Source: Nemertoderma westbladi
Lineage: Eukaryota > Animalia > Xenacoelomorpha
Assembly (NCBI GenBank): GCA_032718475.1
Contig: JAUCBJ010007477.1
Location: 62,001 to 126,000 of the forward strand
DNA length: 64,000 bases
Direction of reading: 5' to 3'
The notes under the pieces were generated by a model, which saw nothing but the letters and a program-made list of their open reading frames with translations, searched no databases and had not been told where the DNA came from. A program made the translations under genes and the position numbers. Shown here in pieces: positions 2,579 to 62,535 of the stretch. Numbering within the stretch: the stretch's first letter is position 1; every line of letters begins with the position of its first letter.

Positions 2579-2579
2579 A

Positions 2580-21027: not shown

Positions 21028-21225
21028 TATAGTTTAAAGTAAGCGATGTTTATACAGTGTCGTTTAAACATAGTTTAAAGTAAGCGATGTTTTTACAGTG
21101 TCATTTAAACATAGTTTAAAGTAAGCTATGTTTTTACAGTGTCGTTTAAACATAGTTTAAAGTAAGCTATGTTTTTACAGTGTCGTTTAAACATAGTTTA
21201 AAGTAAGCTATGTTTTTGCAGTGTT
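21028..21225. repeat. 41-bp tandem repeat (about 5 units), mirrored at 22880-23040
   Basis: Unit ATAGTTTAAAGTAAGC(G/T)ATGTTTTTACAGTGTCGTTTAAAC. Confidence 0.9.
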
Positions 21226-28406: not shown

Positions 28407-29729
28407 TTGTTGATGGAATCTGTGAAACCATCACAACCAAAAATGATGTCATTAAGCGGTAGCTCTACTGATAGCGCGCCCGCCCCATACGTATCGGTGA
28501 TTACAGGTAAGAGTGTGTGGGGCCTCGAGTGTTTGGGGGAAGGAATAGAAATAAAAGCATTTAACGGGAAATACGTTCGATTCAACCGTTGGGGTGATAC
28601 CAAAGGACGCAACATCGTGCAAGAATCGGTAAGTCTTACTTACCAGAACATAAGATTCCTGTTTGACTTCCTCAATTATAATAAAATAGCCGTTGAATAT
28701 TACAAGGAATACACATACAATACACAATACAGGAATACACAATACAATTTGCTTATAACACCGATAAATCATGCGTACTTACGCATTGGGAAAAACGGCG
28801 CATCAATTTTTATCTCGCGAAAAATTCTAGATGTCTTACAAAGCATCTACGGCAAAGTCGTTCTTTCCCGTATTGAACCAAAAAAGAAGGAAATTCATGA
28901 TGAGAATTTTATGGAGTTCGAAGATTGTGGGTACATTGGATATATCTACGACTTTGAAGGGCAACGATTTGTCGGCGTTTGGGAAGCGGATGATATAGGT
29001 AGACAGCGGAAGGGTGTTCTATATTACGATGGGTTGAATCTCAGAGCGGATGAATTCTGTTTGCTCGACTTTAACATAGATAAGAATGTTAACGAGAATA
29101 TCGATGAGGTTAGTATGAGGTACACATCAACCGTTAACAAAAACGGGATATATTTGTCCCACAACTTCGACACCAAGGTTATTTTCATCCCTCGAAACAA
29201 CACAAATGTCAAGATAATTAAGCAATTACAGAAGTACGCGGACCACGATATTCCGTCTGGGTGTGAGTTTCTACCGATTAAAAAGTTAGTTGTTGAGGCT
29301 GCGATTGATGAATTAGTGGACGAGGAACTAATGAAAGTGGTAATGCCGAACAACGCTAGTCAGCTGAAGACGTCCGAAGCAGTAAAAGTCGCTGCTAAGA
29401 AAATGGATGAGAAAAAAATCTGGTTGCCTGCGATTGCAGAAAATGAACGGGTAGACGGCGCTGAAAAAAAGAATGATTATAAGGATATTGATACCCTCGT
29501 TGGGGGTGTGAGCGCTCAGATGAAGATGAAAACACCTAAAGCCATGAAAGAACAAGCGCTTAAGCGAAAAATTGATCTCATCGTGAATAAAACACCTAGC
29601 TATGAGTATGAAGATATCAGCGACTTCGAAGAGGACATCGTCAATGATACGGATGATGGTGAAGACATTTTCAATGAAATCGAGACTAATGGGCAACCTC
29701 AAATAAAGAAGAATAAACATTCAGTGTGA
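28407..29729 (+). CDS. PC4-like repeat protein with acidic/basic tail
   Basis: IKAFNGKYVRF..SVSLTYQN and IYDFEGQRFVGVW..DGLNLRADEF. Homologous to 12166-13176. Acidic tail followed by KKNK. Confidence 0.55.
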   Translation: MLMESVKPSQPKMMSLSGSSTDSAPAPYVSVITGKSVWGLECLGEGIEIKAFNGKYVRFNRWGDTKGRNIVQESVSLTYQNIRFLFDFLNYNKIAVEYYKEYTYNTQYRNTQYNLLITPINHAYLRIGKNGASIFISRKILDVLQSIYGKVVLSRIEPKKKEIHDENFMEFEDCGYIGYIYDFEGQRFVGVWEADDIGRQRKGVLYYDGLNLRADEFCLLDFNIDKNVNENIDEVSMRYTSTVNKNGIYLSHNFDTKVIFIPRNNTNVKIIKQLQKYADHDIPSGCEFLPIKKLVVEAAIDELVDEELMKVVMPNNASQLKTSEAVKVAAKKMDEKKIWLPAIAENERVDGAEKKNDYKDIDTLVGGVSAQMKMKTPKAMKEQALKRKIDLIVNKTPSYEYEDISDFEEDIVNDTDDGEDIFNEIETNGQPQIKKNKHSV

Positions 29730-29928
29730 ATCTTCGAGCGGTAGAAACTTTATTATATAAATAGACCATGTTTCTGGTTGGTGTCATGGTAACGGTTAAA
29801 TTATTATTTGTGGGTTTAATGAATTATCGATTGAAATAAAAATGTTATATAGATTTAGTTATTTATTTATTATACATGCATTTACCGGTATTTATTATTA
29901 TTATTATTATACATATTATTTATTATAC

Positions 29929-30370
29929 ATGGATGTGGTTAGAGAAGATGAGATTGCAGAGGATGAGATTGTGGAGGATGATGAGAGTATCGAGGATGAT
30001 GAGATTGTGGAGGATGGAGATGATAATGAGAACGAAATGATACTGGTAGCAATGTATGTTGACAGAAAAAGAAGAAGCGCGAGTGCAGAGATTGTTAGAG
30101 CCTAGGAATGCGTGGGAGGTGATAGAAAAAAAGTATTATATGGAGGAAGAGGCGAAGAAAAACAAGAGTGTGTGGGGGGAAGATTGGGAGTTGGAGATGG
30201 CGGCTGAGGGGGATAGGAGAGCAAAGGAGGCTGAGAGGTGCGCGCGGGAGAAGGCAATGGAAGAAAGGATTGAGATGTTGATGGGAATGTTAGAGATGTT
30301 AGGCGGTGGCGGAGGTAATGGCAATAATGTGGTGGATGTAGATAGCGAGGATAGTGGGATAAATGGGTGA
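29929..30370 (+). pseudogene. Acidic WGEDW-family protein, copy 1 (frameshift about 30060)
   Basis: D/E-rich N-terminus, then RL..PRN.WE.IEK.YY.EEEA....WGEDW.LEM. Confidence 0.7.
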
Positions 30371-30693
30371 GGTGGTGGAAGAAATTTTAAAATAGTAATG
30401 GTGATGGATTTAAGTATAATAATCAAATTTGTTGGTATAATGATAATATTATAAATACAATAACCTTACTTCGCCGTAGCTCGCCCCACAACTCATTAAT
30501 GGCGCCCATATGCTAAGGCTTCACTCGCTTCATGGCTCGCCCCATTTTTTCAATGTTGGAAAGGAATGAAGGGGATGTTGGGTGATGGTGGTAGTGGTAA
30601 TGATGTTGTGGATGAGGAAGAAGATTGGGTAGATTATATACCACCACCACCTACCGAAAATTAATGTAAGTAATAATTTCAAGGAACAAGGAA

Positions 30694-31130
30694 CTAATGA
30701 AAGTGGAAATGCCGAACAACGCTAGTCAGCTGAAGACGTACGAAGCAGTAAAAGTCACTGCTAAGAAGATGGATGAGAAAAAAATCTGGTTGCCCACGAT
30801 TGCAGAAAATGAACGGGTAGACGGCGCTGAAAAAAAGAATGATTATAAGGATATTGATACCCTCGTTGGGGGTGTGAGCGCTCAGATGAAGATGAAAATA
30901 CCTAAAGCCATGAAAGAACAAGCGCTTAGGCGAAAAATTGATCTCATCGTGAATAAAACACCTAGCTATGCGTATGAAGATAACTTTGAAGAGGACATCG
31001 TCAATGATACGGATGATGGTGAAGACATTTTCAATGAAATCGAGACTAATGGGCAACCTCAAATAAAGAAGAATAAACATTCAGTGTGAATCTTCGAGCG
31101 GTAGAAACTTTATTATATAAATAGACCATG
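30694..31130 (+). pseudogene. Duplicate of the 3' end of 28407-29729
   Basis: Nearly identical last ~130 aa and downstream UTR. Confidence 0.9.
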
Positions 31131-31313
31131 TTCGTAGGCAGTGTTGCTGCAACGAGCCGGACATGGTTAAATTATTATTATTATTTTGTGGTGGTAAATT
31201 ATTTGTTGGTATAATGAATTATCGATTGAAATAAATATTATATAAATTTATTTGTTTATAGTATTATACATTATTATTATTATTATATACACATTTATTT
31301 ATTATACGTGAAT

Positions 31314-31764
31314 ATGTTGGGAGAAAATGAGCTTGTGGTGGATGAAGTGGATATGGATATGGAGGAAGAGGAGGAAGATGAGGATGTAGCGAAGGAGAAC
31401 GAAGAGATATTGGTAGCGATGAATGATGAGGGAGAGAGAAGAAGCGTGGCTAGAAAGATTGATAAATCCAAGGAATGAGCTGGAGGAGATAGAAAAAAAA
31501 CATTATTTGGAGGAAGAGGCGAGGAAGGACAGCGCGTGGGGAGAAGATTGGACATTAGAAATGGAGGCGGAGGGGGACAGGAGAGCGCAGGAGGCGGAGA
31601 GATGTGCGCGGGAGAAAGCAATGGAGGAGAGAATCAATATGTTGGAAGGAATGATGGGGATGTTGGGTGATGGTGGTGGTGGTAATGATGTTGAGGATGA
31701 GGAAGAAGATTGGGCAGATGGTGATAGCGGGATAAGCGGGTGGGGTGGCGGGAGAAATTTTTAA
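31314..31764 (+). pseudogene. Acidic WGEDW-family protein, copy 2 (frameshift about 31425)
   Basis: Matches the intact copy 56263-56703; AWGEDW, DWADG and GWGG motifs. Confidence 0.75.
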
Positions 31765-32915: not shown

Positions 32916-33167
32916 TACTACTACTACAATCGGTGTGCTGCATTGCAGCTGCATATTATGTATTTTTTTACATATATATTAAGATGTTGTGCCGGCTTGT
33001 CGACAAATTTGCACCGCCACAACTCCCTATCGACCATGACATTTGTTAGATCATCTGCATCTTTAAGGTCAGTGTCCTTTAAGATGTGTCTCAAGAAAGT
33101 CATGGGAAGGTTCACCATGCTTATTCACTCCATAAGGCCACCAAAGCAAAGCAACAGCAAAGCGCAG
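32916..33167 (-). mobile_element. RTE-like LINE 3' fragment, second copy
   Basis: PMTFLRHILKDTDLKDADDL..DRELWR followed by a (TAG)n tail. Confidence 0.85.
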
Positions 33168-34721: not shown

Positions 34722-35151
34722 TCACCCATTTATCCCGCAATCCTCGCTATCTACATCCTCCACATTATTACCATTACCACCACCACCACCCAACATCTCC
34801 AACATTCCCATCAACATCTCCTCAATCCTTTCTTTCATCGCCTTCTCCCGCGCACACCTCTCAGCCTCCCTCATTCTCCTAACCCCCTCAGCCGCCATCT
34901 CCAACTCCCAATCTTCTCCCCACACATTCAGGTTCTTTTTCGCCTCTTCCTCCAAATAATAATTTTTCTCTATCTCTTCCCACTCATTTCTCGGATTCAA
35001 CAATCTCTCCACCCGCGCTTCTTCTTTTTCTCTCTCGTAAATCGCCACCAGTATCATCTCATCAATTTCATCCGCTACAATCTCATTTTCCTCCTCCTCC
35101 TCCTCCATCAACCTCATCCACCACAATCTCATTTTCTCCCTCCTCATCCAT
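34722..35151 (-). pseudogene. Acidic WGEDW-family protein, copy 3
   Basis: Inverted paralogue of copy 1; probable frameshift near the N-terminus. Confidence 0.7.
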
Positions 35152-36445: not shown

Positions 36446-38800
36446 GATTTTCGAGTTTAAGATCTGGCATATGGTGGCGCAGTATTTTCTGATTACAGTT
36501 GTACGAATTAACTCAGGCTTTTGGCAGCCAGCTGCTTCAGAATATTTATTTAATACGTCGTGACCTCTGATAGGCTGTAACCCATCCGACTTAAATACAC
36601 GTTCGTGGGGACTTCGCGCAGCACGAGGCCTAGTTATTATATACAAATTAAAATGCAGCGACTGTATCACAAAATCAGGTTTTGAGAAATTTACCCACAC
36701 CACCAATCAATCAAAGAAAGGTGGACAGTACGTGTTCACCCCTTTTAATCTCCCCCCCCCCCCCCCCACCCTTCCCAACCACCAATACATAACCGCGACA
36801 TCTACCACCCACGGAAGGGTAGCACGAACTTATTTCCAATCGCACGTTAAATATGCAAAGCCAGGTGGTTTATAGGAATATAATAAACGCAGTACTCGTT
36901 TTCATTATAAGCCTCTTTGCGTTCGTCCTGTTTTGTATTTAAATATATTTCTTAAACGCAAGCTAGGACAATCTTTATAATAATAATAACTAGGGATGCG
37001 ATCAATATGTGAAGCCAGGTGGTTTATATAATAATTTAGTCAACGCAGTACTCGTCTTCATTATATGCCTCGTTGCGCTCGTCGCTTGTCCTGTTTTGTC
37101 ATAAAATATTTTTCCTAAACGCAGACTGACGATCTTTATACAGTTATAACTATGCGAAGTTTCGAAACTGTGCGAGTAACTGTTGATACATCTATGTGGA
37201 GATGTGTGATATGTGGAGATGTGTGATACAACGCCAACGCATCTTATGCCGATGTAGTAATATGGGTATTGAAATAATATTAAATCAATGTACACTCTTA
37301 AAGCTGCAGCGAAAAAATGTAGCTAATTTCCTAGGTTACATATAAAATAATAATATTATTTTTAAGAACATTAATTTTACTACTTTGCAAAAATTCAATT
37401 AAAAAATAACCAGACATATACATTGTGGAATAAACTATTTCAGAAGCCTACAACAGCCATGCCATGGATTGTATTTATGTTATTATATCTGTCATTTAAC
37501 TGAGATAGCAATAGTAGTAATAGTCGAACGGTTATGCGGCCCGTCCAGCCTATAATAAACACAATTCAGTGATTGGGCTGGAATAGCAATACTGGTTGCC
37601 TCTATTACAATTCCTCTCAGGTTAGTCTACAGCCACAACTCCCAGCAGCTAGCTCCACACCAGCAGAGACTTGACCAATAATGGGAAGGATTAAATTTGT
37701 ACTCAATAATTGTGCGGTTTAATTACGTTTAGATCAATTAAAGACACATTTATTAAAGCAAATCACTTAAACTAATTAAAAACTATAATAGAATGGCGTA
37801 TGGGGATTATATCTGTATAATTTTTAAGTATAATTATTTAAATCTTATACTGTAAAACAATTAATTTCCTTTAAAAGGCAGGTTGAAAATGGCGTTTTCA
37901 CCGCAATCAACTTAATTAACTAATTAACTGCTATTATCTTAGCTTCTCGAAGGCCACACGGAAATTCTACTTGGAAAATTTCTAAACTTTTGCCAAACAA
38001 CATGTGTACCAAGTTTGGATAGATTTCATCAAAGATTGGCCGAGTTATTAACGTTTAAAATTGAACACGACAGAACGACAGAACGACAGAACGACAGAAC
38101 GACAGGTTGATTAATGGTACCACTACGCTAAGGCTCACTCACTTCGTGGCTCGCCCCACAAAGTCATTATTATCCAGACCCTTACAAAGAAAGAGCAACA
38201 GAGGCCTTACTTCTGGTGTAACCAACACGGGAACTGGATTACGCTTTCCAATGGTAGTAAGAAGTCCCATACGCTTTGTTAGCTCCATCTCTAAGGGATT
38301 TAAACATTTCTTAACCTCTTCTGAAGTATGGGCTGTAACATCCCGGTTTAGACCATTTAAAACAGTGCCATATCTCATGGAACTCGGTTCCCTTGACCTC
38401 TTCTTATTAAATAATAAAAGTTGTACAAGTACACATTCCTTGACATCCCGAATGTTGCAATTTCCTGGTATGATTTGTGTATGATGTTTGATGAGTGTAT
38501 CAATATATGATCTTAGTGCTATTATGTCTTTAGTTAGTGGTATCTCATTAATTTTATTGAATTTAGCCTTCTCTAGCGCATACTTAGCAATTCTTGATAC
38601 AACAAAAGTCCATTCAGAGCCATGTAGATGAAGAAACGAGTCTATTTTCCTTTGTAGGTCGATATCATCATCTCTAACAACCTGATTGCGAATAAATTCT
38701 GCAAACTTCCTCAAAGACTGGCCAAATTTGATCTTAGCAGAAGAACTTTAAACTTATTAGCAGCACAAAGCACCTTGTCAAAGTTTTTAGGGTTAATCAA
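36445..38800 (-). pseudogene. Tyrosine-recombinase-like gene fragment split by an insertion
   Basis: LLLFNKKRSRE, GKRNPVPVL and LIRTTVIRKYCAT motifs. Removing the insert and one ACA restores DNNDFVFKSDG. Confidence 0.55.
36600..38157. mobile_element. Non-autonomous Helentron/DINE-like insertion
   Basis: Flanked by ACA, with GC-rich short hairpin-like ends (CGTGGGGACTTCGCGCAGCACG; CACTTCGTGGCTCGCCCC) and a subterminal (CGACAGAA)n microsatellite. Confidence 0.55.
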
Positions 38801-40616: not shown

Positions 40617-41030
40617 CTAATTATATTTTACATCCAAAAACCCTCCACCAAACAACAATAAATTATTAACCAGTTTGTTGAATATAGGATAATATATATG
40701 AAATTTAAACGGAGAACACATTAATGTATATTTACTGGTATAGAAACAGCAAACAACAACAATATTATTTAATCTGACTTTACAGTTATTGAATATTTCT
40801 GGCTCGTATGAAATTTCTAGTTTGACATTATCAAATATAACATAAAACCCGATATTGTTTATAAGTAACCTATAGATTACAGTGTCAATACTAAAAATAT
40901 AAGCACATAAATTAATAGATTTAAAAATCAAATTAATGTTTGTTTTTTCAAATATATGCTTTTTAACTTTATTAAAATTATATTTTCTACCAAGAATTGT
41001 TATTCGTCCATTTGTAAACATTAATAATTA
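40617..41030 (-). pseudogene. TBP-like protein, copy 3 (5'-truncated)
   Basis: MFTNGRITILG..YEPEIFNNCKVRL..CCFYT; close to copy 1. Confidence 0.8.
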
Positions 41031-41312: not shown

Positions 41313-41830
41313 AGTAGTAGGAGAAGAAGTGTCCTCACCATAGTCCTCCCTAGCTTGGGCTATGGGCTACTTCTCGGAGGGCTATTAAAAAATGCCAAAT
41401 TCCGGTGCTAAATTGCGGTGCATGCCATATGTCACCATCGGCAGTTGCCATCAACCAATCGTAGCGTAGCCTTACTCGACTAACTGACTGCTGTTACCTA
41501 CTAACTAACCCTAATGTTATTCCCCTTTTCGCCACGCTACCACCACCACCACCACCACCACCACTGTATACTGTATATGGTGACGACAATGACGACGTAG
41601 CCATCTACACGCACCACGCATATACCCTCCCTCGATATTATATATTATATTATATCGATTGCCAACTCAACGATTTACCTACCGCCAGCTAGAGCTACTC
41701 CTCGACTGCTGTCGCCAAACCAACAAACCAACCAACCAGCCAGTATGATACATGAAATTCCATCACGTTCCCGCTATGCGTATACGTACATTAGTGATTA
41801 TTATTATTATTACGCAGAACCAAATAATTT
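41313..41830 (+). repeat. Polinton TIR (left-type end)
   Basis: Begins AGTAGTAGGAGAAGAAGTGTCC; highly similar to the reverse complement of 62100-62535. Confidence 0.85.
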
Positions 41831-42092: not shown

Positions 42093-42432
42093 AGATAGGG
42101 ACGCGCGATGAATAAATTGTACTACAGCAAACGAAATATACAATACAATATACAATACATTTGTATTATTTTTGCCATACAATAGGTAAAGGTAGAATTA
42201 AATAAAAAGACACAATCGAGACCCAAAACATAAATTACCCTCACACAAAAATAAAGTGGCCCCAGTTTGACTAATCCCTTTGAATCCATAGCTTCGTTAT
42301 TACATCAATTCATCCAAGAAATTAGAATAATCATCTACTCTTGCAATAGTTTGTATTCTTTTGCGTTATACTTATGAAGCAGTCCACGCGCATATTAACT
42401 CAAAGACAAACCCCTACCCAAACACCATGTGA

Positions 42433-42732
42433 TCAATCCCACACCTCTTCTCCCCACGCCATTGAACATTCTCCCTTCTTCTCTTCTTTCTCTTCTTTTT
42501 TCTCTTCTTTTTTCTGTTCTTTTATTATATGAAAAATTGAGTTCCTGGACCTATATTCGCAAAACCGCAAATGGTGATCCTTTTCAGCTTCTCTAAAGCT
42601 GTGTGCGGCTTGAAAAGGACACTGAACCATTTTTTGATTCGAAAAGTTCTTACGACATTTTCTTAAATGCGTAACATATTTTTCTGAATGAATTCTGTGC
42701 GTGGCATCATAAGGACATATGAAATATTCCAT
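42433..42732 (-). CDS. GTSF1/Asterix-like protein (two CHHC U11-48K-type zinc fingers, acidic Trp tail), intact
   Basis: CPYDATH-x9-H-LRKC-RKN and QCPFQAAH-x9-H-LRFC, then a K/E-rich linker and AWGEEVWD. 99 aa, intronless. TATATAAA lies about 110 nt upstream. Confidence 0.88.
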   Translation of the reverse strand: MEYFICPYDATHRIHSEKYVTHLRKCRKNFSNQKMVQCPFQAAHSFREAEKDHHLRFCEYRSRNSIFHIIKEQKKEEKKEEKEEKKGECSMAWGEEVWD

Positions 42733-43038
42733 AGTAACAAAAGACAAAAAACAAAATTTATTGAGATATACTTTTTAAAAAACTTTTAAAAACCTCACTT
42801 AATATTTTTAGAGATAATGATCTAACTTTACATGGTTTTATTTATATAGAAAGGTCCACCTTAACATTTCAAACAGAACCATAGTTTTTGGTATGGCATG
42901 CGTGAAGGATTAAGCATCCCATGGAATCCCTTGTTGAGTTATACTCTACAATGAAATATAAAGACGCAATCGAGGCCCAAAACATAAATTACCCTCACAC
43001 GAAAATAAAGTGGCCCCAGTTTGGCCCCGAGTCATCCC

Positions 43039-43310
43039 TCAATAATCTATGGCTGGTTGGGCTCTTATTAACCGTAGCATGACTAACCCAAACATCAATG
43101 CGTGAATGGGGCCTGCGTGAATGGGGCCTGCCACAGAGCTTAAATTATTCAAACCCACAGCTTCGTTATTACACCAATTCATCCAAGAAATTAGAATAAA
43201 CATCTGCTCTTGCAATAGATTGCATTCTTTCGCATTGTATTGCGAAGCAGTCCACGCATGCATTAGCTCAACAACAAAGGCAATATCCAAACGCCATATG
43301 TCAAATTAAT
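43039..43310 (-). CDS. Small hypothetical protein; decayed direct copy at 42205-42428
   Basis: Shared DNA GCGTGGACTGCTTC..TTATTCTAATTTCTTGGATGAATT..TAATAACGAAGCT on both sides of the GTSF1-like gene. Confidence 0.45.
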
Positions 43311-43793
43311 TCCCAACCATCTCTTTACTACAGTGGATACTGCAGTTTTTTGTTTGAAGTAATTTCAGAGATGCTCTAGTATAACATTAATTAACATACC
43401 CATTCATTCATTACACACACTTTTCTCCAACGCACCCCCCGCTTCTCAATTCATCCCATTTCCCAACCTAACTAATGTTTTACATTTAATTAACCCAATG
43501 AAATGTGTTTATTATTCCCTCAATCCAATAGCGCGTCTCTCTCTCTCTCTCTTTTTATTTCTATTGGTTCCCACAAGCTTCACTTTTATTTTCATTGGTT
43601 ATCCTTTCCCTTATAAACCCCCACCCTTCGCTTCGAACTTTACTTACAAAAATATTATTGACAATTTTACTTTTTATTTAAAGTTATAATACATTTATTG
43701 TTATACATAATATTATATTTTCTTCAAGATTGTTATACGTAATACATTTATTGTTATACATAATATATTGTTGCAAACATCATCAATCTGCAG

Positions 43794-43917
43794 GTAAGAA
43801 CAATAAATTTGTGTTTTTATGAATTCGTTTAGTTTTAACATTATTACCTCAAAATAAATATCAACCCCGCGAAACCTGCCCAAACTTATTATTATTATTT
43901 AGTTTTTTATTTTATAG
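43794..43917 (+). promoter_or_regulatory. Candidate 5'-UTR intron of pPolB lineage D
   Basis: CAG|GTAAGA ... TTTTTTATTTTATAG|CAAACATG, with TATAAA at about 43612. Confidence 0.5.
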
Positions 43918-43922
43918 CAAAC

Positions 43923-45695
43923 ATGCCTAGATCATCAACATTCGTTGACTGTCCTGTCTGCAATAAGAACATGCGCAGTGACAATCTCAACAAACATCTC
44001 GCATCTCATTTTAAACAATATTCATGCGATTGTTGTGGCACCTGGTCCTCCGATAAGAAAACTATGGTTAGCCATCTAGCGCTATGTACGCAAGGTGGGA
44101 CTGGGTTCAGATTTATCAACGAAGAAAACACTTGCAAGTGTGGCGAATCATTCACTCTATCAGCCTTTAAAGAACACGATTGCTATACGCGTCTCTTCTC
44201 TCGGAAACGCAAACAATCTCAAACGCCCTTGTCACCACCACCACCACCTCCACCACCAAACATTCAATCTCCTAGGGTTGGCCCTTCTACTTCAAGACAA
44301 CAGACTGGAGGTTCGACCAACAACCCATTTTTACCATCAGTGAATAGCTCATCCCACAACCGCTTATTTACATATACAAACACGTTACTTACACCACAAT
44401 TAGATGTAGAGTTAACACTTAGAGAAAATGAAAGTTATATTTGGGATAGAGTGAGTCAACATTTTAATAATGAATTTAATTTTATAAAAGTTTGGTTAAC
44501 TATTTCTATCTTAATGGAAAGGGAGACATCTGAGGGTACTCAATTAGAAACCTTCTGTTTCAAATCAAACGCTTCAAATAATCAAATAACTTCTAATTTA
44601 GATTTTGAAAACTGGTTTTCGCAAACTATCGAACGAATAGATGAATTAATAGCAGTCTTTGTTTGCATGGGCAGTGGTTGGAATATTGTTTCAATTAAAG
44701 AAATCAATTTACAAATTTCTACCTTCAATCGCAACCCCTATTTAAAAGGACACGGTGGTGGTTATATTCCTAAAATTTTAGCAAAGAAGAAGTGCATTAT
44801 TAACTTAGATTGTCCCATCGGGGAATGTTTTAAGTACGCAGTAGTTGCTGCTGCTTGTTATAAAAAAATTGAAAGAAAGAAACAAAACATTAGTCGATTG
44901 TCAACATATACCCCATAATGTCCATGTTTGATTTCAGTACGATGAGTTTCCCAGTAGATAGAGTAGTAGGCATCCCACGTTTTTTAGAAACCAACCCTTT
45001 GTACTGCATTAATTTATTATTTTGGAGTACTGATAACACATTGAGCATTCTATCACAACCAGATTCAGAACATTGCTTCCAAAAAACTGTTTTAAATTTA
45101 ATGTTTATAGAAGGTAATCAAAACAATCCAGGACATTACTGCGCAATTGTCAACTTAAATAGACTTATTAAAAAATCAGGACAAAAGAACAAATCAATTT
45201 GTGAGCGTTGTCTGAGAGCTTTTTATACTATTAACTCATTGCAAACTCACCGAGAACTATGTTACTCGAGCAAACGACAATTGGAACAAATGCCTACACC
45301 AGATAAATTAAAAATTAAATTCAATCGATTAGATAAAACATTATCCCCTCCCTTTTGCATATATGCCGATATTGAAAGCGTTTTAGAACCTACATCAAAC
45401 CCTAAATTAGTTCAAAAGCACATTGCTAGCGCCGCCGCATTTTATACAGTACCAAATCGCGAGCTAATAAATCCCCCACAAACATCATTACAAATGTTTA
45501 GAGACACTGGAACAAACCATGTTATAGACGATTTTCTCACTGCCCTCGAATCACACTGTAGGGAATTATACGAGTGGACTATTTCTGGTACAAACACCAA
45601 TGTTCCTAAACATTTGACTCGAGCACAGCAACAAAATTTTGATAATGCTACAAACTGTTACACTTGTAACTGTTCTCTAACCCCCGATTCACATG
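43923..45695 (+). pseudogene. pPolB lineage D, N-terminal region only
   Basis: CPVC..MRSDNLNKHLASH zinc finger, MGSGW, CFKYA, GHY, CERCL and YADIE. Frameshift at about 44915; truncated by rearrangement. Confidence 0.9.
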
Positions 45696-45880
45696 GACCC
45701 CCCCCCCCCCGCTGTCCCCTCACCGAAAGTTTGGGGCACCCTGCCGGAAACAGGTACTTGTTGGATGGGGTCGTCTGCTTCTGGATTTGGCTTTGCTTCG
45801 CTTCGTAGCTCTTGCCGCCGTCTCACCCACAATAAAGTTGCGGCAATCTTCGAGGTTGATTTATCACCGCCTGTAGCCAT
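45689..45880 (-). pseudogene. MATG/QQVPVSGRVPQT family protein fragment
   Basis: Shares IAATLLW.RRRQE and PIQQVPVSGRVPQT with 57317-57750 and 62719-63096. Confidence 0.6.
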
Positions 45881-45949
45881 TATGTCGATATGTTTTAGTT
45901 TATTTAGATAGTTTATAATTTAATAATTTAATTAATAAAGTGATGCCGT

Positions 45950-46170
45950 TATCACTATTCCCGATGTTAATATAGTAAATTATTATAACAGAACTAGCTA
46001 ATTTGGTAAGGCTAATTATCTATGCTTTGTATATGGCTTATTTCTTCTTTTGTGAAACCGGTCACATATGTAAGTAAATTGAACCCAGACCTTTGATTGT
46101 CGTTAGAGCGTTTAATTATTGTCTAATGCGCGTAGCGTGGATAGAGATTCTGGCCTTTGTGATTCTGGCC
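45950..46170 (-). promoter_or_regulatory. Conserved ~220-bp upstream cassette (also 46625-46838, 57830-58045)
   Basis: Three near-identical non-coding copies, each just 5' of an ATG-GCT-initiated ORF of one family. Confidence 0.55.
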
Positions 46171-46286
46171 TCTGAGCCTTCACGCAGCACGAAGTAAGCA
46201 AGCATTTAGCATGTAGGTACTATTGTTGAATTTGTTGATTTTATTTATTAATGTTATTATATTAATTGTCGAAATTATTACTTACA

Positions 46287-46562
46287 TTAATTTTCGGTTG
46301 GAGGTGGCGTATGCGTTTCATCGATCATCCGTGGTGGGCACACGCACATCGGTCGTCCCCCGGCGATCGGCAAGACGATCGCCGGGCGTGCCGGGACCAA
46401 ATCATCTTTATACCACCAGTTTACCTCCGGCGAGTGCATCGCCCGCACCCTTTGTGCCCACATAACTCTGATTAGATTCATCCTGTTCAATTTTTTAAAT
46501 GTTGAAGGATGATGCACGAAGGGTTGAACAACTAACGTTGGTTTCTTACCGCCTTCAGCCAT
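46287..46562 (-). CDS. Small Pro-rich protein (C.CPPRM..ET.TPPPT family)
   Basis: C-terminus homologous to 57317-57736. Confidence 0.55.
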   Translation of the reverse strand: MAEGGKKPTLVVQPFVHHPSTFKKLNRMNLIRVMWAQRVRAMHSPEVNWWYKDDLVPARPAIVLPIAGGRPMCVCPPRMIDETHTPPPTEN

Positions 46563-47185
46563 TGAAATTGAAATTAATAAATTAAGAATAATATTATAAT
46601 TTAAATATTAAAGTGATTTTGGTATAGCTATTCCCAATGTTAATATAGTAAACTATTATAACAGAACTAGCTAATTTTGGTAAGGCTAATTATCTATGCT
46701 TCGTATCTATATATGGCTTATTTCTTTTGTGAAACCGGTCACATATGTGAGTAAATTGAACCCAGACCTTTGATTGTCGTTAGAGCGTTTAATTATTGTC
46801 TAATGCGCGTAGCGTGGATAGAGATTCTGGCCTTTGTGTTAACCACATAGGTTGGGCGGCAGATGCTTGGTATATAATGGAAAGAATTGGGCCCCCAATA
46901 TGGCTATGTCTGATTATTCCGGTTTTACTGGTGCCCACACGCTAAAGACTTCACCTCACTTGTTGCCGCGTGAAGGTTTCAGCGATTGACGATGAAAATT
47001 AAAAAAATTAAAAAAAGAATAGTGCTGCGTGAAGACCCCACCCACGTCACTTACCACGTCCCATATATTTATTAAAAATATTGCTAATACTATACACCCA
47101 AGAAATAAATATTTATTATTAATATTAATGCTAATAATATTTTCACACACCGCAATTGAATATACCCATAACCGAAATAAATAAA

Positions 47186-47625
47186 TTATTTTATTAATGA
47201 AAGTGTCCACAGTAATAACAATAAATCATTGTACCGCAAATTAGAGGTGAATATATTCATTGCTCCGGGATTTTTCGGCACCTCGGTTAGATAATACAGA
47301 CAAAATAGACCACACTGAGTCGAATGTGGCGCTTGAAACATTTTACAATTCCAAGTATGCCTTTGGGTATATTTATGCAACCAATAGGATATTTTCGGTG
47401 GTGGGGCTTTACCAAACGAATCTAAATAATAAGCAATTCTGTTAACCACGCGTACGCAAGACCAGTGTTGCCCCGGTAGGCCTATACGTTGATTATTAAT
47501 AATAAATGAATAATTTTGTTTATGCTTATTTTTTTTTACGTGTATTAGGTGTAATTGGTCGATTGCGTAAACACCGATGTATTCGGGCCCCACCGGGAAT
47601 TTCGCTAATTGTATAGATCCAACAT
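47186..47625 (-). pseudogene. Adenain-like protease, copy 2
   Basis: PGQHW, LDSFG and FQ....QCGLFC; 1-nt deletion near the start relative to copy 3. Confidence 0.9.
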
Positions 47626-47719
47626 CTCAGCGTGCGCGTATCATTAAAAGTTTAAGATAATTTTTCTAATTCCATAGGCGGTGCGGCTTCGCTTACATTG
47701 TACTATGCGAGATCTTTAT

Positions 47720-48980
47720 TTATTCGGTTATTATTTCCTTGGCTTCCGAAATAGATAGAAGAGCGTCATAGCTTGCCATTAATATAACGTTAATAGTGTT
47801 AACTAGGGCATAACTAAATTTCAGAATCAAATGCCCGCTTGTATGTATACTAGGTTGAATCTCATGGCTTTGATCGCCTCCAGCGGTAAGATCTAATACA
47901 ATCAAAGGAAATTGGGTACAAAACCGTTCTGGTGTTAGTGAGCAAAATACGCTGCTCAAGCTCTTGAACACGTTCATTAAACTTTCGAATTCTAACATAA
48001 AATTGTTTTCCGGAAAGTTAGGGCGATATGGATACCCATGTATAATACGGGAGTCGATGTTTAGTTCAGCATAATTTAAACCGAAATGGTTAAAATGTAG
48101 CGGATTACTGCTTAATTCCCCGTTGAAGCTGGCGTTGGTAAGCCTTCCAATCAAAATATACTTAGGTAATTTCCCTTGGATTATGTTCGATTCCATATAA
48201 CTGGACTGTCCGCCACCAATAGTGAAGCTTTTCACTTTTTGTTTTAACAAGTTATAAATAAAGTCATTTTTTTGTGACCCCAACAAATGCGCGCGCATAA
48301 CCTCGGCATCAATCCTGTGGCGTTTTTTTTTTTTAAATTAATATTCATGATTTCAACTCTTGGGTTTGCCAAGCTTGCGGAGGGTTCAACTTTCAAAAAA
48401 AAATTATTCGATACTCGGTCTATACGAAGTCGAATGTTAATTCCTGGCGGCAGTAATTTGTCCTGACTTGTTAGGTCTAAAAAATTTGGGGCCACAACGA
48501 ATTTAACATAATTCCCCCGAACGCCGTTCCCATTAGCGACAGGTACCCCGCCTAGATTATTATCTGTATCTTCATAACCGCCAGCTCTTAAAATACCGCT
48601 TTTTTCGTTAGCATCTGTCAACAGTAATGTCTGAAACGTAGACTTATAGGCGTAGAACCCATTCGAGGTTTCAACTAGCTTTTCATTTAGGTACAACGAA
48701 CAATTCTCAAACAGCGATCCACCCGGGTAATTGAGATGGTGGAGGGTTGTATCGTCGTTAGCCCTATCACCATCCCATGTAATTTTATATTTAATGTGAA
48801 ATTTCGAATTCTTTAAATCAGTATATAGAACATTTATTTGACTGGGGTATTAAGAACTCTATTTGCCTGGCATTCGCGTCAAGAGTAGAAATCAGGTAGA
48901 TATCCAATAAATGTGAAGATGTATATTCTTGCTGATTTGTTTTACTCGAGAATAATGATAATTCTAATTTACACATTGTT
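47720..48980 (-). pseudogene. Major capsid protein, copy 2 (frameshifted)
   Basis: ELSLF..FYAYKS..LPKYILIG..ASFNG...NPLHFNHF..DLTAGG. Confidence 0.9.
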
Positions 48981-48983
48981 AAG

Positions 48984-49505
48984 TTACATGAAAATATCAC
49001 GACATTTATTATTTAGATTTTTACGTTTGCGGGCAACGTTCATACCCACACTTGGGTGTCGCCGTTTCCCGCTCCTCTTTTTTTTTACTTTTTGGGTTTG
49101 TAAATTCACCCGTTGGGCGATTTGGCGTGTCTTTGGATGAGGTTCTAACCGCGCAGCGACTTTATTTATCAAATCATCTGATTTAATGCGTAAAATACGT
49201 TTTCCTTCCGGTATTATGTATTTCTGCGCCGCTTTTGCTGCTTTGGGGAGTGCTTTAGTTAGCACCTTTCTCCCTAACTTGCGCACTAATATACCGAGGC
49301 CAGTTGTTAATATTCCACGCCCACGCTGACGATTTTGGGCGTGTCGCTGGCTGAATTTATTATTCTTATTATTCCATACACCAGTAGAAGGGCCAAACCC
49401 GGGGAGAATGCTTCCAACCTTAAAAACGGGTATATCGCTATAATTCCCACTTCCCAGTTGGATTTGTGGGGTGCTATATAATTTAAACAAATTAGAATCT
49501 GACAT
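48984..49505 (-). CDS. Basic core protein, copy 2
   Basis: Homologous to 2580-3140; QLGS|G and QRGR|G motifs, K/R-rich. Confidence 0.7.
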   Translation of the reverse strand: MSDSNLFKLYSTPQIQLGSGNYSDIPVFKVGSILPGFGPSTGVWNNKNNKFSQRHAQNRQRGRGILTTGLGILVRKLGRKVLTKALPKAAKAAQKYIIPEGKRILRIKSDDLINKVAARLEPHPKTRQIAQRVNLQTQKVKKKRSGKRRHPSVGMNVARKRKNLNNKCRDIFM

Positions 49506-49737
49506 TATTATTATGAGTATTTATTATAACGTATAATAATAATTCTTTACTACATACGTATATGTGTAATCAACAAATAATATATGTACCACATAATAAT
49601 ACAATATAATTAATAAATATATATACATTAATTTGATGACAACCATTTCCCATAACCAACTGCGAGTTTCATAGAACAGTAATTAAAACAAGAATCTTTA
49701 TCAGAATGGTAGGCACAATTTGTTATTGCCGAATAAT

Positions 49738-50167
49738 GTATGTTTCTGTGCCAGGTATATTGGCATTTGCCATATGAAGGTTGGTGTAAGAAACTCCGCC
49801 CCTAATGGAATTTTCGAATGTTAAATACATTTCATGGTCTGCAAGTAGACGAATATGTGACTTGGAAAATCTCAAAGCCGCGTCCCAACTAACCCTCGCC
49901 ATCGTGTAATAGTTCGAAACCTCAAGCGAATAATGTTTAGTACAATAAGCATGAAAATTTTCAAAAATATCGGCTAGCAGCAACACGGCAAGATGTAAGT
50001 AAGCTTCCAAATAATCAAAAAGTGTCTCACATTCAAATTGTTCCCACGAAAGATGAGCAAATGTATATTCTTCAGGGCTAATAGATGATAATGTTAATTC
50101 GCTGTAAAACTCTTTTGGAAGCGGTAATTTAGTATGGCCCAATTTACTTAAGGAATCGACATATTCG
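49738..50167 (-). pseudogene. Duplicated fragment of pPolB lineage C lacking the foldback insertion
   Basis: Near-identical to 24270-24597 joined to 20606-20712. Confidence 0.9.
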
Positions 50168-50199
50168 AGTAGTATGGGTATAGCCTTCTTTGGCCCATT

Positions 50200-50610
50200 G
50201 TCTGCCATAGCCCATCATTGATGTCAATCATTGAATGCCTGCGTGTGTATGCCATAGCCCATCATTGATGTCAATCATCTAATGCCTGCGTATTGACGAC
50301 TATTACCTACCAATAGGAACGCAGGAATAATCACAGTTTAACCAATAGGAATGTAGGAATGTAGGAATGTGATGGCGGCAATATCCTACATTCCATTCCC
50401 GGTCATTGACCTCAACAGATTTAGCGCTTCCTTACTCGAATGCTTGCATGTGTCTGCCATACTTTATATCATAGATATCAATCATTGAATGCCTGCGTAT
50501 TGACAACTATTATCAACCAATAGGAATGCTTACAGTTAAAGAATGTAGGAATAAATCACAGTTTAACCAATAGGAATGTAGGAATATGATAGCAGTAAAA
50601 TCCTACATTG
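50200..50610. repeat. Complex short tandem repeats
   Basis: Recurrent GCCATAGCCCATCATTGATGTCAATCAT, AATGCCTGCGT and CCAATAGGAATGTAGGAAT. Confidence 0.7.
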
Positions 50611-51692
50611 AACAGTTTAATCAATTAGTAAGTCGTAGGACTTGATTACTGTAAGAATTGTTGACTGATTGATTGATTGACTGGCTGGCTGGCTGGCTGA
50701 TCTACAGCTAAAACTACTCTAACGATTTTGTAGGAATGTTTGTAGATCTCTCATTCTATCCCCAATTATTACCCTCAATTGATTTACTGATTCTTCTCAA
50801 TAGTGGGCTATGGCAGACACTGTAATTGATATGTTATTGACTTTTAATTAACTTGTAATTGATATGTTATTGACATTTTAATTAACTTATCTTTTCTGCT
50901 AGGTGAGTAGTACAGAACCTCGAGTATAATATAATATAATTTATTGAGTAATAAATTAATTCTAATTATTTTTTCGCTGAGGGGAGGATTTCGTACAGCA
51001 CAAGTGCTACGTAACTGTAATAGAATAACAATAACCCTGTTGATTAGAGCCAGTCTTTTATTACATAATAATATAATAATAATAATACAGAACTAACAAC
51101 TACTATTTGTTTTACAGTTAAACAGTTTTACAGAATCACCATCCACCAATATTTAATGCCAAATCAAATTGTCTATATGTTGTTGTAGATGGATGATGCA
51201 GTGGTTCCTTCTCGATGATGGAGTTGTTATCTTAACCTATATAATTCAACAAAGTTTAAAGTTTTACTTTGTGTCTCTGATGAAGTCTATTTTATTAAAT
51301 TATTTATATTTATACAGTATTTATATATTAAAAACGGATATGGAGAGGGAGTGTGTTATTGAAACAGTTGTCAATTATTGTTTTACTTACCTTCTGTATA
51401 TGTAATTATACTGAGTATTGTAAAACTAAAGATGTCATACTTAACTTAAATAGCCCTAGTTAGAAGGTTTACAAATGACAGTTAAAGTGTGTAAGGGCAA
51501 ACTGAAATGGATCTCTGTTTCTACAACTAGTTTACTAGCATCGCCTTCACTCATACATTTTTGGGAAACACTCATACATTTTTGGGAAAGACGGTTTTCT
51601 TATATCTAACAGAGATTAGTATAATGTACTCTCTAATATAGGCTCTCGTGCCGCGCGAAGGCCCCACGAATGTGTTTTATTTACCGTGTTAA

Positions 51693-52066
51693 TCAGTCCC
51701 ACGCTTCTTCTGGCCATTCCATTCTTTTTTCGTCTTTCTTTTCCTCTTCTTTCATTGCACCTTTTTCATAAATTGATTTACCATTTCTGTATTGACAGTA
51801 TCTCAAATGATGCTCTTGTTCCGCTTCAGCAAAGAAGTGTGAGTCAATATTTGGACATTGAATAATTTTCTGATATGGCTGATTTTTTCGACATTTTCTT
51901 ATATGTCTGACGAATCTGTCCCCATGGATCAGCTCTCGATCAACCTTATCAAGCCGGCACAGCATTCTTAAAAATGCAGCTGCAATGCAGCATGCCGATC
52001 CTAGTAGTAGTCCCCATGGATCCTATGGCAAGGGTCATATGGACAGACGATGTATTCGTTATCCAT
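51693..52066 (-). pseudogene. GTSF1/Asterix-like protein, copy 2, disrupted by a LINE insertion
   Basis: Removing the insert and one TSD gives MDNEYIVCPYDPCHRIHGDRFVRHIRKCRKN..QCPNIDSH..EHHLRYC..EWPEEAWD (93 aa). Confidence 0.88.
51931..52009 (+). mobile_element. 79-bp RTE-like LINE 3' tip with 13-bp TSD
   Basis: TSD GTCCCCATGGATC at 51918-51930 and 52010-52022. Most of the body is identical to 15134-15193. Confidence 0.92.
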
Positions 52067-52497: not shown

Positions 52498-53263
52498 TTG
52501 TGGGACGGTTGTAAGTATTTGGCTACCATTATGTACATTTTGGCTAGCAAACTTGACAATAATACGACTGACAATGCATTATTGAAAGACATCTGTATCC
52601 GTAATGCTATTGTAAATGTATCGCCACACCTGATTACTTTCCCCTCCGATGACAATTTTTTTTATTTCCATGTATATGGGTGTATATTTAACGACTCAAA
52701 AAGGAGTTACGGATACATTTTAGAATTAGTGCTGGACCCACTTAGCAATAAATATATTGTATTCATGGATGACCTTTGTCGAGCTATCACGGATACAGAT
52801 ATTCTAGAAAGCAATGAAGATTGCGACCTCATAATGCTTGGGTTAGAAGTCCATTCGAATGCTCAGCTGAAAAAACTGACAACATTAAATTGCGAGAAAA
52901 CGAGCATTGTTTTAAGCCAGTATGAACCCGGATACGACACGGTCCAAATAACTCTGGAACGTACCCCTTAGAACAGTTGGGCCGCTGGCAGTCTCTACGG
53001 CCATTTTAGATTGTGGGAAATATTGACCACGGGTTTGGGCTATACTACAGATGGACGGAATATATGTGGCACGGAAACAATTCCGATGTGGGCTGGGAAT
53101 GCACGGGACTTCGATGGGCAATTACCTCTAACAGGCTCGGATTGCATGGATAAAATAAAAGAATGGAGTTTAGAGGCCATTAGAGATCGTGTTTCAAATA
53201 ATATCTATGTTTTGGGTTTAAGCACCATAGACCGCATTATAAACAATATTACCATGGTTGAAT
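52498..53263 (+). pseudogene. Unknown ~260-codon gene with one in-frame stop
   Basis: ORFs 52498-52971 and 53011 onward are in frame. After MITE removal it ends MVELD*. No family recognised. Confidence 0.45.
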
Positions 53264-53976
53264 GGATATATCTTTTTACAGAACATAGCAGAACACAGTA
53301 GAACACAGCAGAACACAATAGAATACAGGCGGAACATAGGCGAACACAGCTGTAATTAAAATCTACACCAAAAAATAACACACTTTGGAAAGTACCGGAT
53401 TTAATCATACAACTGTAAGATGTCAATTACATATTTAAATTAAATGGCGGTTTTCCATATCCTCCAAAATAAATTACTTCTCATTATCCTGTAACCATGG
53501 AGAGTTGGTTAGTTCTACAGCAGTACAGTACCGGTAGCTGAGTAGGCCTACATCAGTACATTGGTAATATACTCTACACTGTGCCCGGTAATTGCCGGTA
53601 AATGCCTACATCTGTCTGTCTGTACAATGTACAGTCTGTCAGTCTGTACATGTCTCTACAGCACTAGGCCTACTGCAGTACTGGAACAGGCTGACAGGCA
53701 GACAGCTGGACTAGTAACAGGTACAGGCCTAACCGAACAGCTGATCGGGCAACTCTGATCAGGTAATTTATTTTGGAGGATATGGAAAACCGCCATTTAA
53801 TTTAAATATGTAATTGACATCTTACAGTTGTATGATTAAGTCCGGTACTTTCCCAAGTGTGTTATTTTTTGGTGTAGATTTTAATTACAGCTGTGTTCGC
53901 CTATGTTCCGCCTGTATTCTATTGTGTTCTGCTGTGTTCTACTGTGTTCTGCTGTGTTCTGTAAAAAGAACTATCC
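53264..53976. mobile_element. MULE-like MITE with ~210-bp TIRs and 9-bp TSD
   Basis: TGGTTGAAT|GGATA ... TATCC|TGGTTGAAT. Arms at 53264-53477 and 53763-53976. Confidence 0.9.
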
Positions 53977-54332: not shown

Positions 54333-55337
54333 TTATTGGAAGTGATTTTCACCGAAGTTGGGTCTATAAGGGTAGCCATGTACCACCTTCAAATCAACAT
54401 TCAATTCCCCATAGTTTAAGTTGAAATGATTGAAATTTAGCGGATTGCTACCCAATTCTCCATTAAAGCTGGCATTAGTGAGCATGCCCAACAGAATATA
54501 TTTCGGTAACCTCCCTTGAATTATACTTGAGTGAGTATAACTTGACTGCCCACCCGCTATTGTGAAGGTCTTCACATCTCGCTTCAATAAGTTATATATA
54601 AAGTCATTTTTCTGTGAACCTACAAGATGCGCTCGTGCCACTTCGTTATCGATTTTATGGCGTTTTATCTTTAGATTGATGGCCATTATTTCTACTATCG
54701 CATTTGTTAATCCGGCAGGAGGCTCAACCTTCAGGAAAAAATTATTCGACACGCGGTCCATACGAATTCGAGCAGAAATTCCAGGTGGCAGAAGTTTATC
54801 CTGAGCAGCCAAATCCATAAAGAGTGGCACAATGACGAATTTGATAAAGAGTGGCGCAATGACGAATTTGATATAATTCCCACGGATGTTGTTGTCAGTG
54901 CCAACAGGGACACCACCCTGGTTATTCTCATTATTCTCATAGCCACCAGCCCTCAAGATGACACTTTTTTCATTTGCATCTGTCAGTAGCAATGTTTGAA
55001 ATATAGACTTATAAGCATAGAACCCATTCGAGGTTTCGACAAGTTTTTCGTTTAAATATAAAGAGCAATTTTCAAAGAGTGTGCCACCAGGATAATTGAG
55101 ATGGTGGAGGATAGTATTGTCATTAGCTCTATCACCGTCCCAGGTAATTTTATATTTGATGTGGAATTTGGAATTTTTCAAATCTGTATAAAGAATGTTT
55201 GATTCGGGTACAAAAAATTCGATTTGGCACGCATTTGCGTCGAGAGTAGAAATCGGGTAAATGTCCAACCAGTGTGAAGATGTGTATTCTCTTTGATTAG
55301 CTTTACTCAAAAATAAAGATAATTCTCTTTTGCTCAT
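54333..55337 (-). pseudogene. Major capsid protein, copy 3 (C-terminally truncated)
   Basis: Close paralogue of copy 2 with an internal 27-nt duplication (IKFVIAPLF twice). Confidence 0.9.
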
Positions 55338-56262: not shown

Positions 56263-56703
56263 TTACCCGCTTATCCCGCTATCACCATCCGCCCAATCTT
56301 CTTCCTGATCCTCAGCATCATTACCACCACCACCATCACCCAACATCTCCATCATTCCTTCCAACATATTGATTCTCTCCTCCATCGCTTTCTCCCGCGC
56401 ACATCTCTCCGCCTCCCGCACTCTCCTATCCCCCTCCGCCTCCATTTCTAATGTCCAATCTTCTCCCCACGCGCTGTTCTTCCTTGCCTCTTCCTCCAAA
56501 TAATGTTTTTTTTCTATCTCCTCCCACTCATTCCTTGGATTTAACAATCTTTCTAGCCGCGCTTCTTCTCTCTCCCTCACATACATCGCTACCAATATCT
56601 CTTCGTTCTCCTTCGCTACATCCTCATCTTCCTCCTCTTCCTCCACATCCATATCCACTTCATCCACCGCAAGCTCATTTTCTCCCAACATATTCACATT
56701 CAT
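56263..56703 (-). CDS. Acidic WGEDW-family protein, copy 4 (intact)
   Basis: 146-aa uninterrupted ORF; inverted copy of the 31095-31990 region. Confidence 0.75.
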   Translation of the reverse strand: MNVNMLGENELAVDEVDMDVEEEEEDEDVAKENEEILVAMYVREREEARLERLLNPRNEWEEIEKKHYLEEEARKNSAWGEDWTLEMEAEGDRRVREAERCAREKAMEERINMLEGMMEMLGDGGGGNDAEDQEEDWADGDSGISG

Positions 56704-61769: not shown

Positions 61770-62535
61770 ACCATGAATATTAAAAGTGATGAATTTTAAT
61801 AAAAACAAATTACAAGTGATGAATTTTAATAAAAACATTCAGTTATATATAATTTCTGAGTATAACACGTAAGCAACAAATACTGTATGTAGCATAGTCA
61901 ACGACGAATAAGAAAAGAGATGGGATGCAATGTGGATAAATGGTTGGTTGGTTGGTTGGTTGGTTGCATGGATAGGAAATACGTGAAAGAATATGAAACA
62001 TAGGGTTGTGCGTAATAATAATCAATAATTATAATATGGCACAGATGCTGAGGGATCGGTTAGGATGAGTAACTACTATGGAAATGCGAGAACGTGTAGT
62101 TGACGCGTGGCGGAATTTCATGTATCATACTGGCTGGTTGGTTGGTTTGTTGGTTTGGCGACAGCAGTCGAGGAGTTGGCAATCGATATAATATAATATA
62201 TAATATCGAGGGAGGGTATATGCGTGATGCGTGTAGATGGCCACGTCGTCGTTGTCGTCACCATATACAGTATACAGTGGTGGTAGCGTGGCGGTGGTGG
62301 TGGTAACGTGGCGAAAAGGTGAATAACATTAGGGTTAGTTAGTCAGTAGTCGAGTAAGGCGGGCATCGCAAGGTTAGGCTACGCTACGATTGGTTGATGG
62401 CAACTGCCGATGGTGACATATGGCGCGCACCGTAATTTAGCACCGGAATTTGGCATTTTGTAAAGGCCTCCGAATGGAATGCCCATAGCCCAAGCTAGGG
62501 AGGACTATGGTGGGGACACTTCTTCTCCTACTACT
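61770..62535 (-). repeat. Polinton TIR (right-type end)
   Basis: Ends GGACACTTCTTCTCCTACTACT. Confidence 0.85.

Follow-up and report, generated by a model that had tools for sequence, protein, structure and literature searches.

A GTSF1/Asterix homologue in a Polinton arm of Nemertoderma westbladi, a possible PIWI-directed cargo gene

In a stretch of 64,000 nucleotides from the xenacoelomorph Nemertoderma westbladi (positions 62,001 to 126,000 of contig JAUCBJ010007477.1, assembly GCA_032718475.1; hereafter, the window), we find an intact gene for a homologue of GTSF1/Asterix, a cofactor in silencing by PIWI-interacting RNAs (piRNAs), in the arm of a Polinton, a DNA virus-like mobile element. 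A second, broken copy lies in the same window. The intact gene is probably cargo captured by the element, a conclusion resting on one clear junction; if it is cargo, its product would, by analogy with studied GTSF1 proteins, likely be directed at PIWI. Host-gene cargo of Polintons is a known kind of gene; what is unusual here is its target. Proteins that suppress the host's silencing system are made by plant elements and RNA viruses, and this gene bears on whether animal transposons or germline viruses have counterparts that act against the piRNA pathway.

The intact gene, copy 1, and the motif upstream of it are located as follows.

42433..42732, minus strand: GTSF1-like copy 1, an intact single-exon open reading frame (ORF) of 99 amino acids with two CHHC fingers, a K/E linker and a terminal W-x4-W (EExWD)
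42840..42846, minus strand: TATA-like box about 110 bp upstream of the copy 1 ATG, a motif only

Pfam, a sequence search of the PDB and the predicted fold all identify copy 1 as a genuine homologue of GTSF1/Asterix. The small protein carries, at its N-terminus and in tandem, two U11-48K-type fingers of the form C-x5-H-x9-H-x3-C that begin at residues 6 and 38, the arrangement that defines the GTSF1/Asterix family. These are followed by a K/E-rich linker (residues 63-90; nine Lys or Arg and eight Asp or Glu) and by a C-terminal Trp pair, Trp93 and Trp98. An earlier reading of the DNA, made from the sequence only, had proposed the homology and suggested a profile search, which confirms it: Pfam zf-U11-48K (PF05253) matches two stretches of copy 1 (E 1.2e-10; 41.5 bits against a cut-off of 21.1), the one such match in the 41 window ORFs scanned with Pfam. 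A PDB sequence search retrieved mouse GTSF1 (6x46, E 3.6e-12) and the GTSF1 chain of 9nhb (E 4.2e-9), with U11-48K far behind (E 0.062). The predicted model, built from a 33-row alignment, has a mean predicted local distance difference test score (pLDDT) of 82, exceeding 90 across the fingers, and Foldseek ranked 6x46 and 9nhc_E first; together with the top Atlas clusters, these matches place copy 1 closer to GTSF1 than to U11-48K or TRM13.

With copy 1 as the query, HMMER gave 550 matches at E 0.001 or better among 1.84 billion representative sequences. Identity to copy 1 is at most 48% among the best 150 of these 550, and the named entries among 20 matches checked are animal GTSF1-like or uncharacterised proteins. 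A word-seeded protein search with copy 1 returned no match; blanks from this type of search, here and below, are weak, because the HMMER scan recovered 550 relatives. No relative was found in viral contig scans (with copy 1, an alignment of short GTSF proteins and the capsid-like pair as queries) or in a metagenome scan with copy 1, and among viral structures there was no match with an E of 0.001 or below. By start-codon context and GC content at third codon positions, the copies are not distinguishable from other AT-rich sequence.

The case for cargo rests on where copy 1 lies. Polinton terminal repeats start with AGT-type repeats, and the target-site duplication is 6 bp long. The features around copy 1 that bear on its position, with the related terminal repeat at the far side of the window, are these.

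41313..41767, plus strand: Polinton terminal inverted repeat, left end, which begins AGTAGTAG and is 83.6% identical over 469 bp to inverted 62106-62535
62106..62535, minus strand: Polinton terminal repeat in opposite orientation, probably the end of another copy, with no target-site duplication in common with 41313
42166..42436, unstranded: direct repeat A, short form, in the 3' flank of copy 1 and overlapping its stop codon, with 92% and 82% matches to 42947-43304
42946..43304, unstranded: direct repeat A', long form, with copy 1 and its upstream region between A and A'
43923..45700, plus strand: N-terminal part of a protein-primed DNA polymerase B gene, two ORFs (reading frames to 45805) that break off near 45700

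The repeat at 41313 also matches ends at 14461 and 63348, so that the window holds four related ends (14461, 41313, 62535 and 63348) of the long terminal inverted repeats typical of Polintons. The protein-primed polymerase, another Polinton hallmark, is represented next to copy 1 by its N-terminal part, which tblastn matches to polymerase genes at 9804-11909 and 24970-26886 (E 1e-31 to 1e-49). The second of these continues into a piece with a DNA_pol_B_2 match (E 7e-6; 25.6 bits against a cut-off of 25.8), and a word-seeded search with the N-terminal ORF against longer proteins gave no match. An adenain-like protease (Peptidase_C5, E 2.7e-5, above the cut-off; 4393-4848) and an A32-like packaging ATPase (a weak Pox_A32 match, E 0.002; 16002-16691), both characteristic of Polintons, lie elsewhere in the window than copy 1. 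From the end inwards, the order at copy 1 is terminal repeat, sub-terminal sequence in common with the 63348 arm, repeat A, copy 1 facing the end, repeat A' and the start of the divergent polymerase gene. The start of the polymerase gene is 1.2 kb from copy 1, which lies 1.1 kb inside the terminal repeat, and no host exon intervenes. The sequence-only reading had put copy 1 between a Polinton terminal repeat at 41313 and a divergently transcribed polymerase gene; the position stands and the repeat is real, but the polymerase is present only as its N-terminal part and there is no intact element. The 6-bp flanks of the repeats at 41313 and 62535 differ, and this pair of 83.6% identical repeats therefore does not bound one intact element. 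The mismatch lowers the case for an intact element, not that for a Polinton-derived arm.

The second gene is interrupted.

51693..52066, minus strand: GTSF1-like copy 2, in two pieces, broken within finger 1; tblastn to copy 1 E 1e-18 and 3e-4, with profile matches
51931..52009, plus strand: 5'-truncated insert of 79 bp resembling a long interspersed nuclear element (LINE), ending in TAG repeats and splitting finger 1 of copy 2

Copy 2 has the same two C-x5-H-x9-H-x3-C fingers as copy 1 and the C-terminus EWPEEAWD, with AATAAA directly 3' of its stop codon. The two compact genes described from the sequence are thus both real, with fingers and tail as given there; copy 1 is intact, and the ORF of copy 2 is broken by the 79-bp insert. 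A perfect 13-bp target-site duplication (51918-51930 and 52010-52022) surrounds this insert, 60 bp of which match 15134-15193 with 100% identity; a third relative is found at 32917-33146, and all three have a common 3' end with TAG repeats and unequal 5' lengths. Judged by this anatomy, the insert is a young 5'-truncated LINE-like insertion. We take the family to be a LINE family; the ORF adjoining LINE-like sequence has no Pfam match. Copy 2 has as neighbours a polymerase fragment (49738-50167) and a capsid-like gene (54336-55337), and its putative tie to a Polinton is by this neighbourhood only. Six-frame translation of the whole window, searched with the GTSF profile, yielded no third copy. 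Divergent from copy 2, an ORF with one internal stop (52498-53298; no usable library match) runs into a 713-bp element (53264-53976) with 214-bp inverted repeats that are 98% identical.

Protein-level purifying selection is observed on the GTSF1-like copies. Over the fingers, copies 1 and 2 have the same residue in 35 of 61 aligned codons (with an X at the break in copy 2), and all eight zinc ligands and both tail Trp residues are common to the two, in agreement with the roughly 35 of 62 residues of the earlier hand alignment. The proportion of synonymous differences (pS) over these 61 codons is 0.83, that is, saturated, and that of nonsynonymous differences (pN) is 0.24, with a bootstrap range of 0.35-0.82 for pS-pN. 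Two capsid-like copies, taken as a comparison pair, display a similar pattern (pS 0.73, pN 0.11).

Selection is also apparent among variants of copy 1 in public DNA. Four of six listed runs of the same organism, one of them possibly the source of the window itself and two (X1 and X3) from one sample, were aligned to 42520-43520, an interval outside which lie the 3' part of copy 1, with the Trp tail, and copy 2. The runs contain at least five versions of copy 1. Fourteen of 19 coding differences are synonymous, against 5.0 expected, and none of 200,000 simulations reached 14; this excess rests on 40 of 107 differences listed, and the remainder could soften it. All five replacements leave the zinc ligands untouched, and no indel falls in the coding part among the 12 of 26 indels listed. 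Purifying selection, as claimed in the sequence-only reading, is accordingly seen both between copies and among variants, and a ratio of nonsynonymous to synonymous change (dN/dS) near 1, which that reading had named as evidence against itself, did not occur.

The same runs indicate a multi-copy gene, as had been supposed. Five contigs of run X2 that overlap 42614-42665 carry between 1 and 23 differences. Unless this sample is a pool, two alleles would not account for them, and some diverge by 10-20%, a high figure for alleles. In X1, X2 and X3, variant contigs extend across the ATG into a common upstream flank. Summed contig depth is 14- to 23-fold higher over the long form A', and 5- to 21-fold higher over the inner arm, than over the gene, a hint only that a minority of arms carry it, as depth is not copy number. 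In X1, the depth of the short-form repeat (352) and that of contigs nearly identical to copy 1 (334 and 355) fit a cassette made of the gene and a duplicated arm. Run X4 covers the arm repeat with no contig over the gene; contigs drop rare variants, and we hence do not count this as absence. Loose ends at 42950 match the flank of repeat A and hence do not show that cassette-less arms exist.

Studies of mouse GTSF1 (PMC9385479) provide a guide to function. Its potentiation of PIWI requires R26, R29, K36 and K39; its central Trp residues bind PIWI, with W98, W107 and W112 needed for tight binding and a mutant binding 60-fold more weakly; and activation requires both its basic surface, which binds RNA, and its aromatic motif, which binds PIWI. 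By alignment, three of the four basic positions are basic in both copies: copy 1 has H15, K18, K25 and K28, and copy 2 has H, R, K and K, with R13, R24 and R27 as other basic residues of finger 1. The equivalent of R26 is a variable site, Arg in 32 of the 143 homologues compared, which are those among the best 150 with extractable tandem fingers. An acidic aromatic motif, [ED][ED]xW[DE], is present in 52 of the 143, at a median of 33 residues past the fingers; the corresponding EExWD lies 31 and 23 residues past the fingers in copies 1 and 2. Both copies end at EExWD, whereas 48 of the 52 motif-bearing homologues continue for at least 22 residues (median 116). The two are closest to each other in sequence (57%, as against at most 47% to any of the 143), and their branches in a finger-only tree are not unusually long.

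Two further groups of proteins share features with the copies. A separate short GTSF1-like group (P0024, P0050, P0119, P0022 and locus L001 1638-1955; 105-126 amino acids) ends at or just past the acidic Trp motif. A scan with five short tail-less homologues gave 15 loci with no convincing match to the Polinton proteins of the window (two marginal, E 0.005); the loci look cellular, and in 4 of the 15 the fingers are split by 1.6-2 kb. Within the window, a family of repeated acidic ORFs (29842-31764, 34722-35147 and 56263-56703) occurs in rearranged copies with 'AWGEDW'-like acidic Trp motifs and without a Pfam match in the two scanned; the motif is reminiscent of the tail of the GTSF1-like copies and might serve as a further short binding module of the Trp-acid type.

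These observations lead us to a tentative proposal, which falls short of an even chance, that the captured protein would bind target-engaged PIWI and compete with host GTSF1. The fuller version, held more tentatively still, is that a GTSF1 protein mimic, long carried by the element given its saturated synonymous sites, occupies target-engaged PIWI and blocks silencing, as an element-encoded suppressor of the piRNA effector. Capture may have proceeded through an mRNA copy, because introns are lacking and a LINE-like family is active in the genome. Only a subfamily of elements would carry the gene, as a cassette between two copies of the arm repeat. By analogy with mouse and fly GTSF1, the EExWD end would bind PIWI and finger 1 would contact RNA; the protein could then attach to PIWI-piRNA-target complexes of the host as a competitor of full-length host GTSF1, and so weaken silencing of the element. 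The inhibitory outcome is the weakest step. We prefer it to activation, by a clear if modest preference, because the protein ends right at the motif for PIWI binding and reduced silencing would benefit a selfish element.

Several observations weigh against this proposal. The window is a patchwork of decayed Polintons without one intact element. Repeat A/A' occurs nowhere else in it and may be an independent repeat, and the variant contigs are too short to tie variants to Polinton ends. Near copy 2, the terminal-repeat profile found nothing convincing (best E 8.3), and we found no resemblance between the flanks of copies 1 and 2. The finger-only tree of 145 sequences, built without host GTSF1, pairs the copies with weak support (0.54). 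Loss of the tail is not unique, as 4 of the 52 motif-bearing homologues end within one residue of the motif. Finally, the copies appear to keep both modules that an activating GTSF1 needs and to lack only the C-terminal tail; such a protein looks able to activate, and with the basic surface for RNA and the aromatic motif for PIWI both retained, a decoy is less plausible.

Among the alternatives, a host-serving family of GTSF1 paralogues (retrogenes) that expanded in Polinton-rich heterochromatin or in a piRNA cluster, with the Polinton context incidental or a vehicle, survives best, although we consider it rather unlikely. Several GTSF1 paralogues are common in animals, with three in mammals and four in Drosophila (PMC9539491), and the tangle of fragments in the window, the gene depth well below that of the inner arm (with the same caution about depth) and the lack of a detected terminal repeat near copy 2 are all in keeping with it. 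It has to contend with the short distances from copy 1 to the terminal repeat and to the polymerase start without an intervening host exon, with the upstream flank common to the variants and with the disabling of copy 2 by an insertion, a fate it has in common with neighbouring element genes.

It is unlikely, too, though it is the chief alternative if the gene is cargo, that the protein is a working PIWI activator that boosts slicing or turnover of piRNA-induced silencing complexes (piRISC), for example against competing LINEs that disrupt Polinton genes, or to rid the element's own transcripts of bound piRISC. Both modules for potentiation are retained, the central and C-terminal region of GTSF1 is poorly conserved across phyla (about 8% between mouse and insects; PMC9385479), and Polinton-region sequences in the window are broken by LINE-like inserts. 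Yet a stronger PIWI would hit the element's own transcripts as well, and both copies stop exactly at the motif.

We regard as improbable a role of the cargo away from PIWI, either as an RNA- or tRNA-binding zinc-finger protein or with a rewired partner, like nematode GTSF-1 with RRF-3. GTSF1 does bind tRNA (PMC9539491) and nematode GTSF-1 has switched partner, but in the latter the aromatic residues and the basic surface are gone (PMC13650160), whereas the copies keep both, and the Trp pair has been kept across saturated synonymous divergence. Very improbable is RNA-level counter-defence, in which the captured sequence yields antisense piRNAs against host GTSF1 mRNA, in the manner of the nxf2, piwi and aub fragments captured by Drosophila telomeric elements (PMC13534243): that route needs nucleotide identity and no ORF, whereas here the whole ORF is conserved and synonymous sites are free to the point of saturation, not the non-coding fragment identical in nucleotides to a host gene that TART-nxf2 represents.

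Set beside known systems, the copies resemble GTSF1/Asterix (6x46; 9nhb/9nhc in SIWI complexes; PMC9385479, PMC9539491) in tandem CHHC fingers, basic finger 1, acidic aromatic motif and predicted fold, and differ in being single-exon, multi-copy, tail-less at the motif and, for copy 1, situated in a Polinton arm, besides the limited identity to the best-matching homologues given above. The closest parallel in gene organisation is with Polinton/Maverick/adintovirus accessory genes, small host-like genes in a variable region upstream of PolB: adintovirus Oncoid accessory genes are typically found there, and Bcl2 and IAP are among the cargo (PMC8502044), as are wosp/krma in nematode Polintons (PMC10680173). 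Copy 1 departs from these in that the gene carried belongs to the small-RNA machinery by which such elements are silenced. One supplementary file of PMC8502044, possibly incomplete and with figures that are not searchable, contains none of the terms GTSF, CHHC and U11, and 'piRNA' is absent from the main text of that paper. Captures by Drosophila telomeric retrotransposons, of nxf2 in TART and of piwi and aub (PMC13534243, PMC7785250), likewise place piRNA-pathway gene sequence in a mobile element and are read as counter-defence; the counter-defence cases compared act at the RNA level (PMC13534243), through fragments that are sources of antisense piRNAs, whereas copy 1, in a DNA virus-like element, is a complete ORF on which selection acts at the protein level. 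A small-RNA pathway gene is affected, too, by Polintons inserted at C. elegans eri-6/7; there the insertion rearranged a host locus, and, unlike in copy 1, the pathway gene is not carried (PMC11414722). No report of GTSF1 in a Polinton, another transposon or a virus appears among the literature matches listed; repeat databases, outside this search, may hold an annotation.

A natural, tail-less protein of 99 amino acids with a PIWI-binding motif is directly testable in published PIWI slicing assays. If it inhibits, it would represent an anti-silencing factor of a new class, and a compact means of switching PIWI off; if it activates, a selfish element would be supplying its host's own defence cofactor, and the protein would define a minimal functional GTSF1.

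The remainder of the window is rich in Polinton-type genes. It contains at least three divergent polymerase 5' ends, three capsid-like and three protease-like genes, TBP-like genes, a dUTPase, the ATPase and an integrase-like ORF whose sole Pfam match is a chromodomain. The capsid and integrase labels are presumptive and follow gene order; the capsid-like ORFs have no library match, including in word-seeded searches, and their fold model is of low confidence (pLDDT 33). Overall, 1-64000 comprises at least three divergent Polinton families in both orientations, with polymerase pieces 30-47% identical, and may represent a graveyard within heterochromatin or a locus from which piRNAs derive.

TBP-like genes lie at 7319-7900 (Pfam TBP, E 7e-8), 18780-19274 (E 0.001) and 40617-41021; the first two are directly downstream of Polinton polymerase genes, and the first and third are 78% identical. 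Upstream of the polymerase gene at 26886 are a dUTPase-like gene (27180-27812, E 1.9e-16) and an ORF of 438 amino acids (28413-29729), which is related to 12166-13176, itself upstream of another polymerase gene. A polymerase gene is interrupted by a 3.5-kb inverted-repeat element (20713-24269) that contains tandem subrepeats of 41 bp and 85 bp; the fragment at 49738-50167 is a matching polymerase piece that lacks the insert. An ORF fragment at 38142-38747, without a Pfam match, resembles what we take to be part of a tyrosine-recombinase-type protein. In the region of a capsid module, 80-1272 and 1888-3080 form a 1193-bp tandem duplication, 99.8% identical, that is either recent or an assembly artefact.

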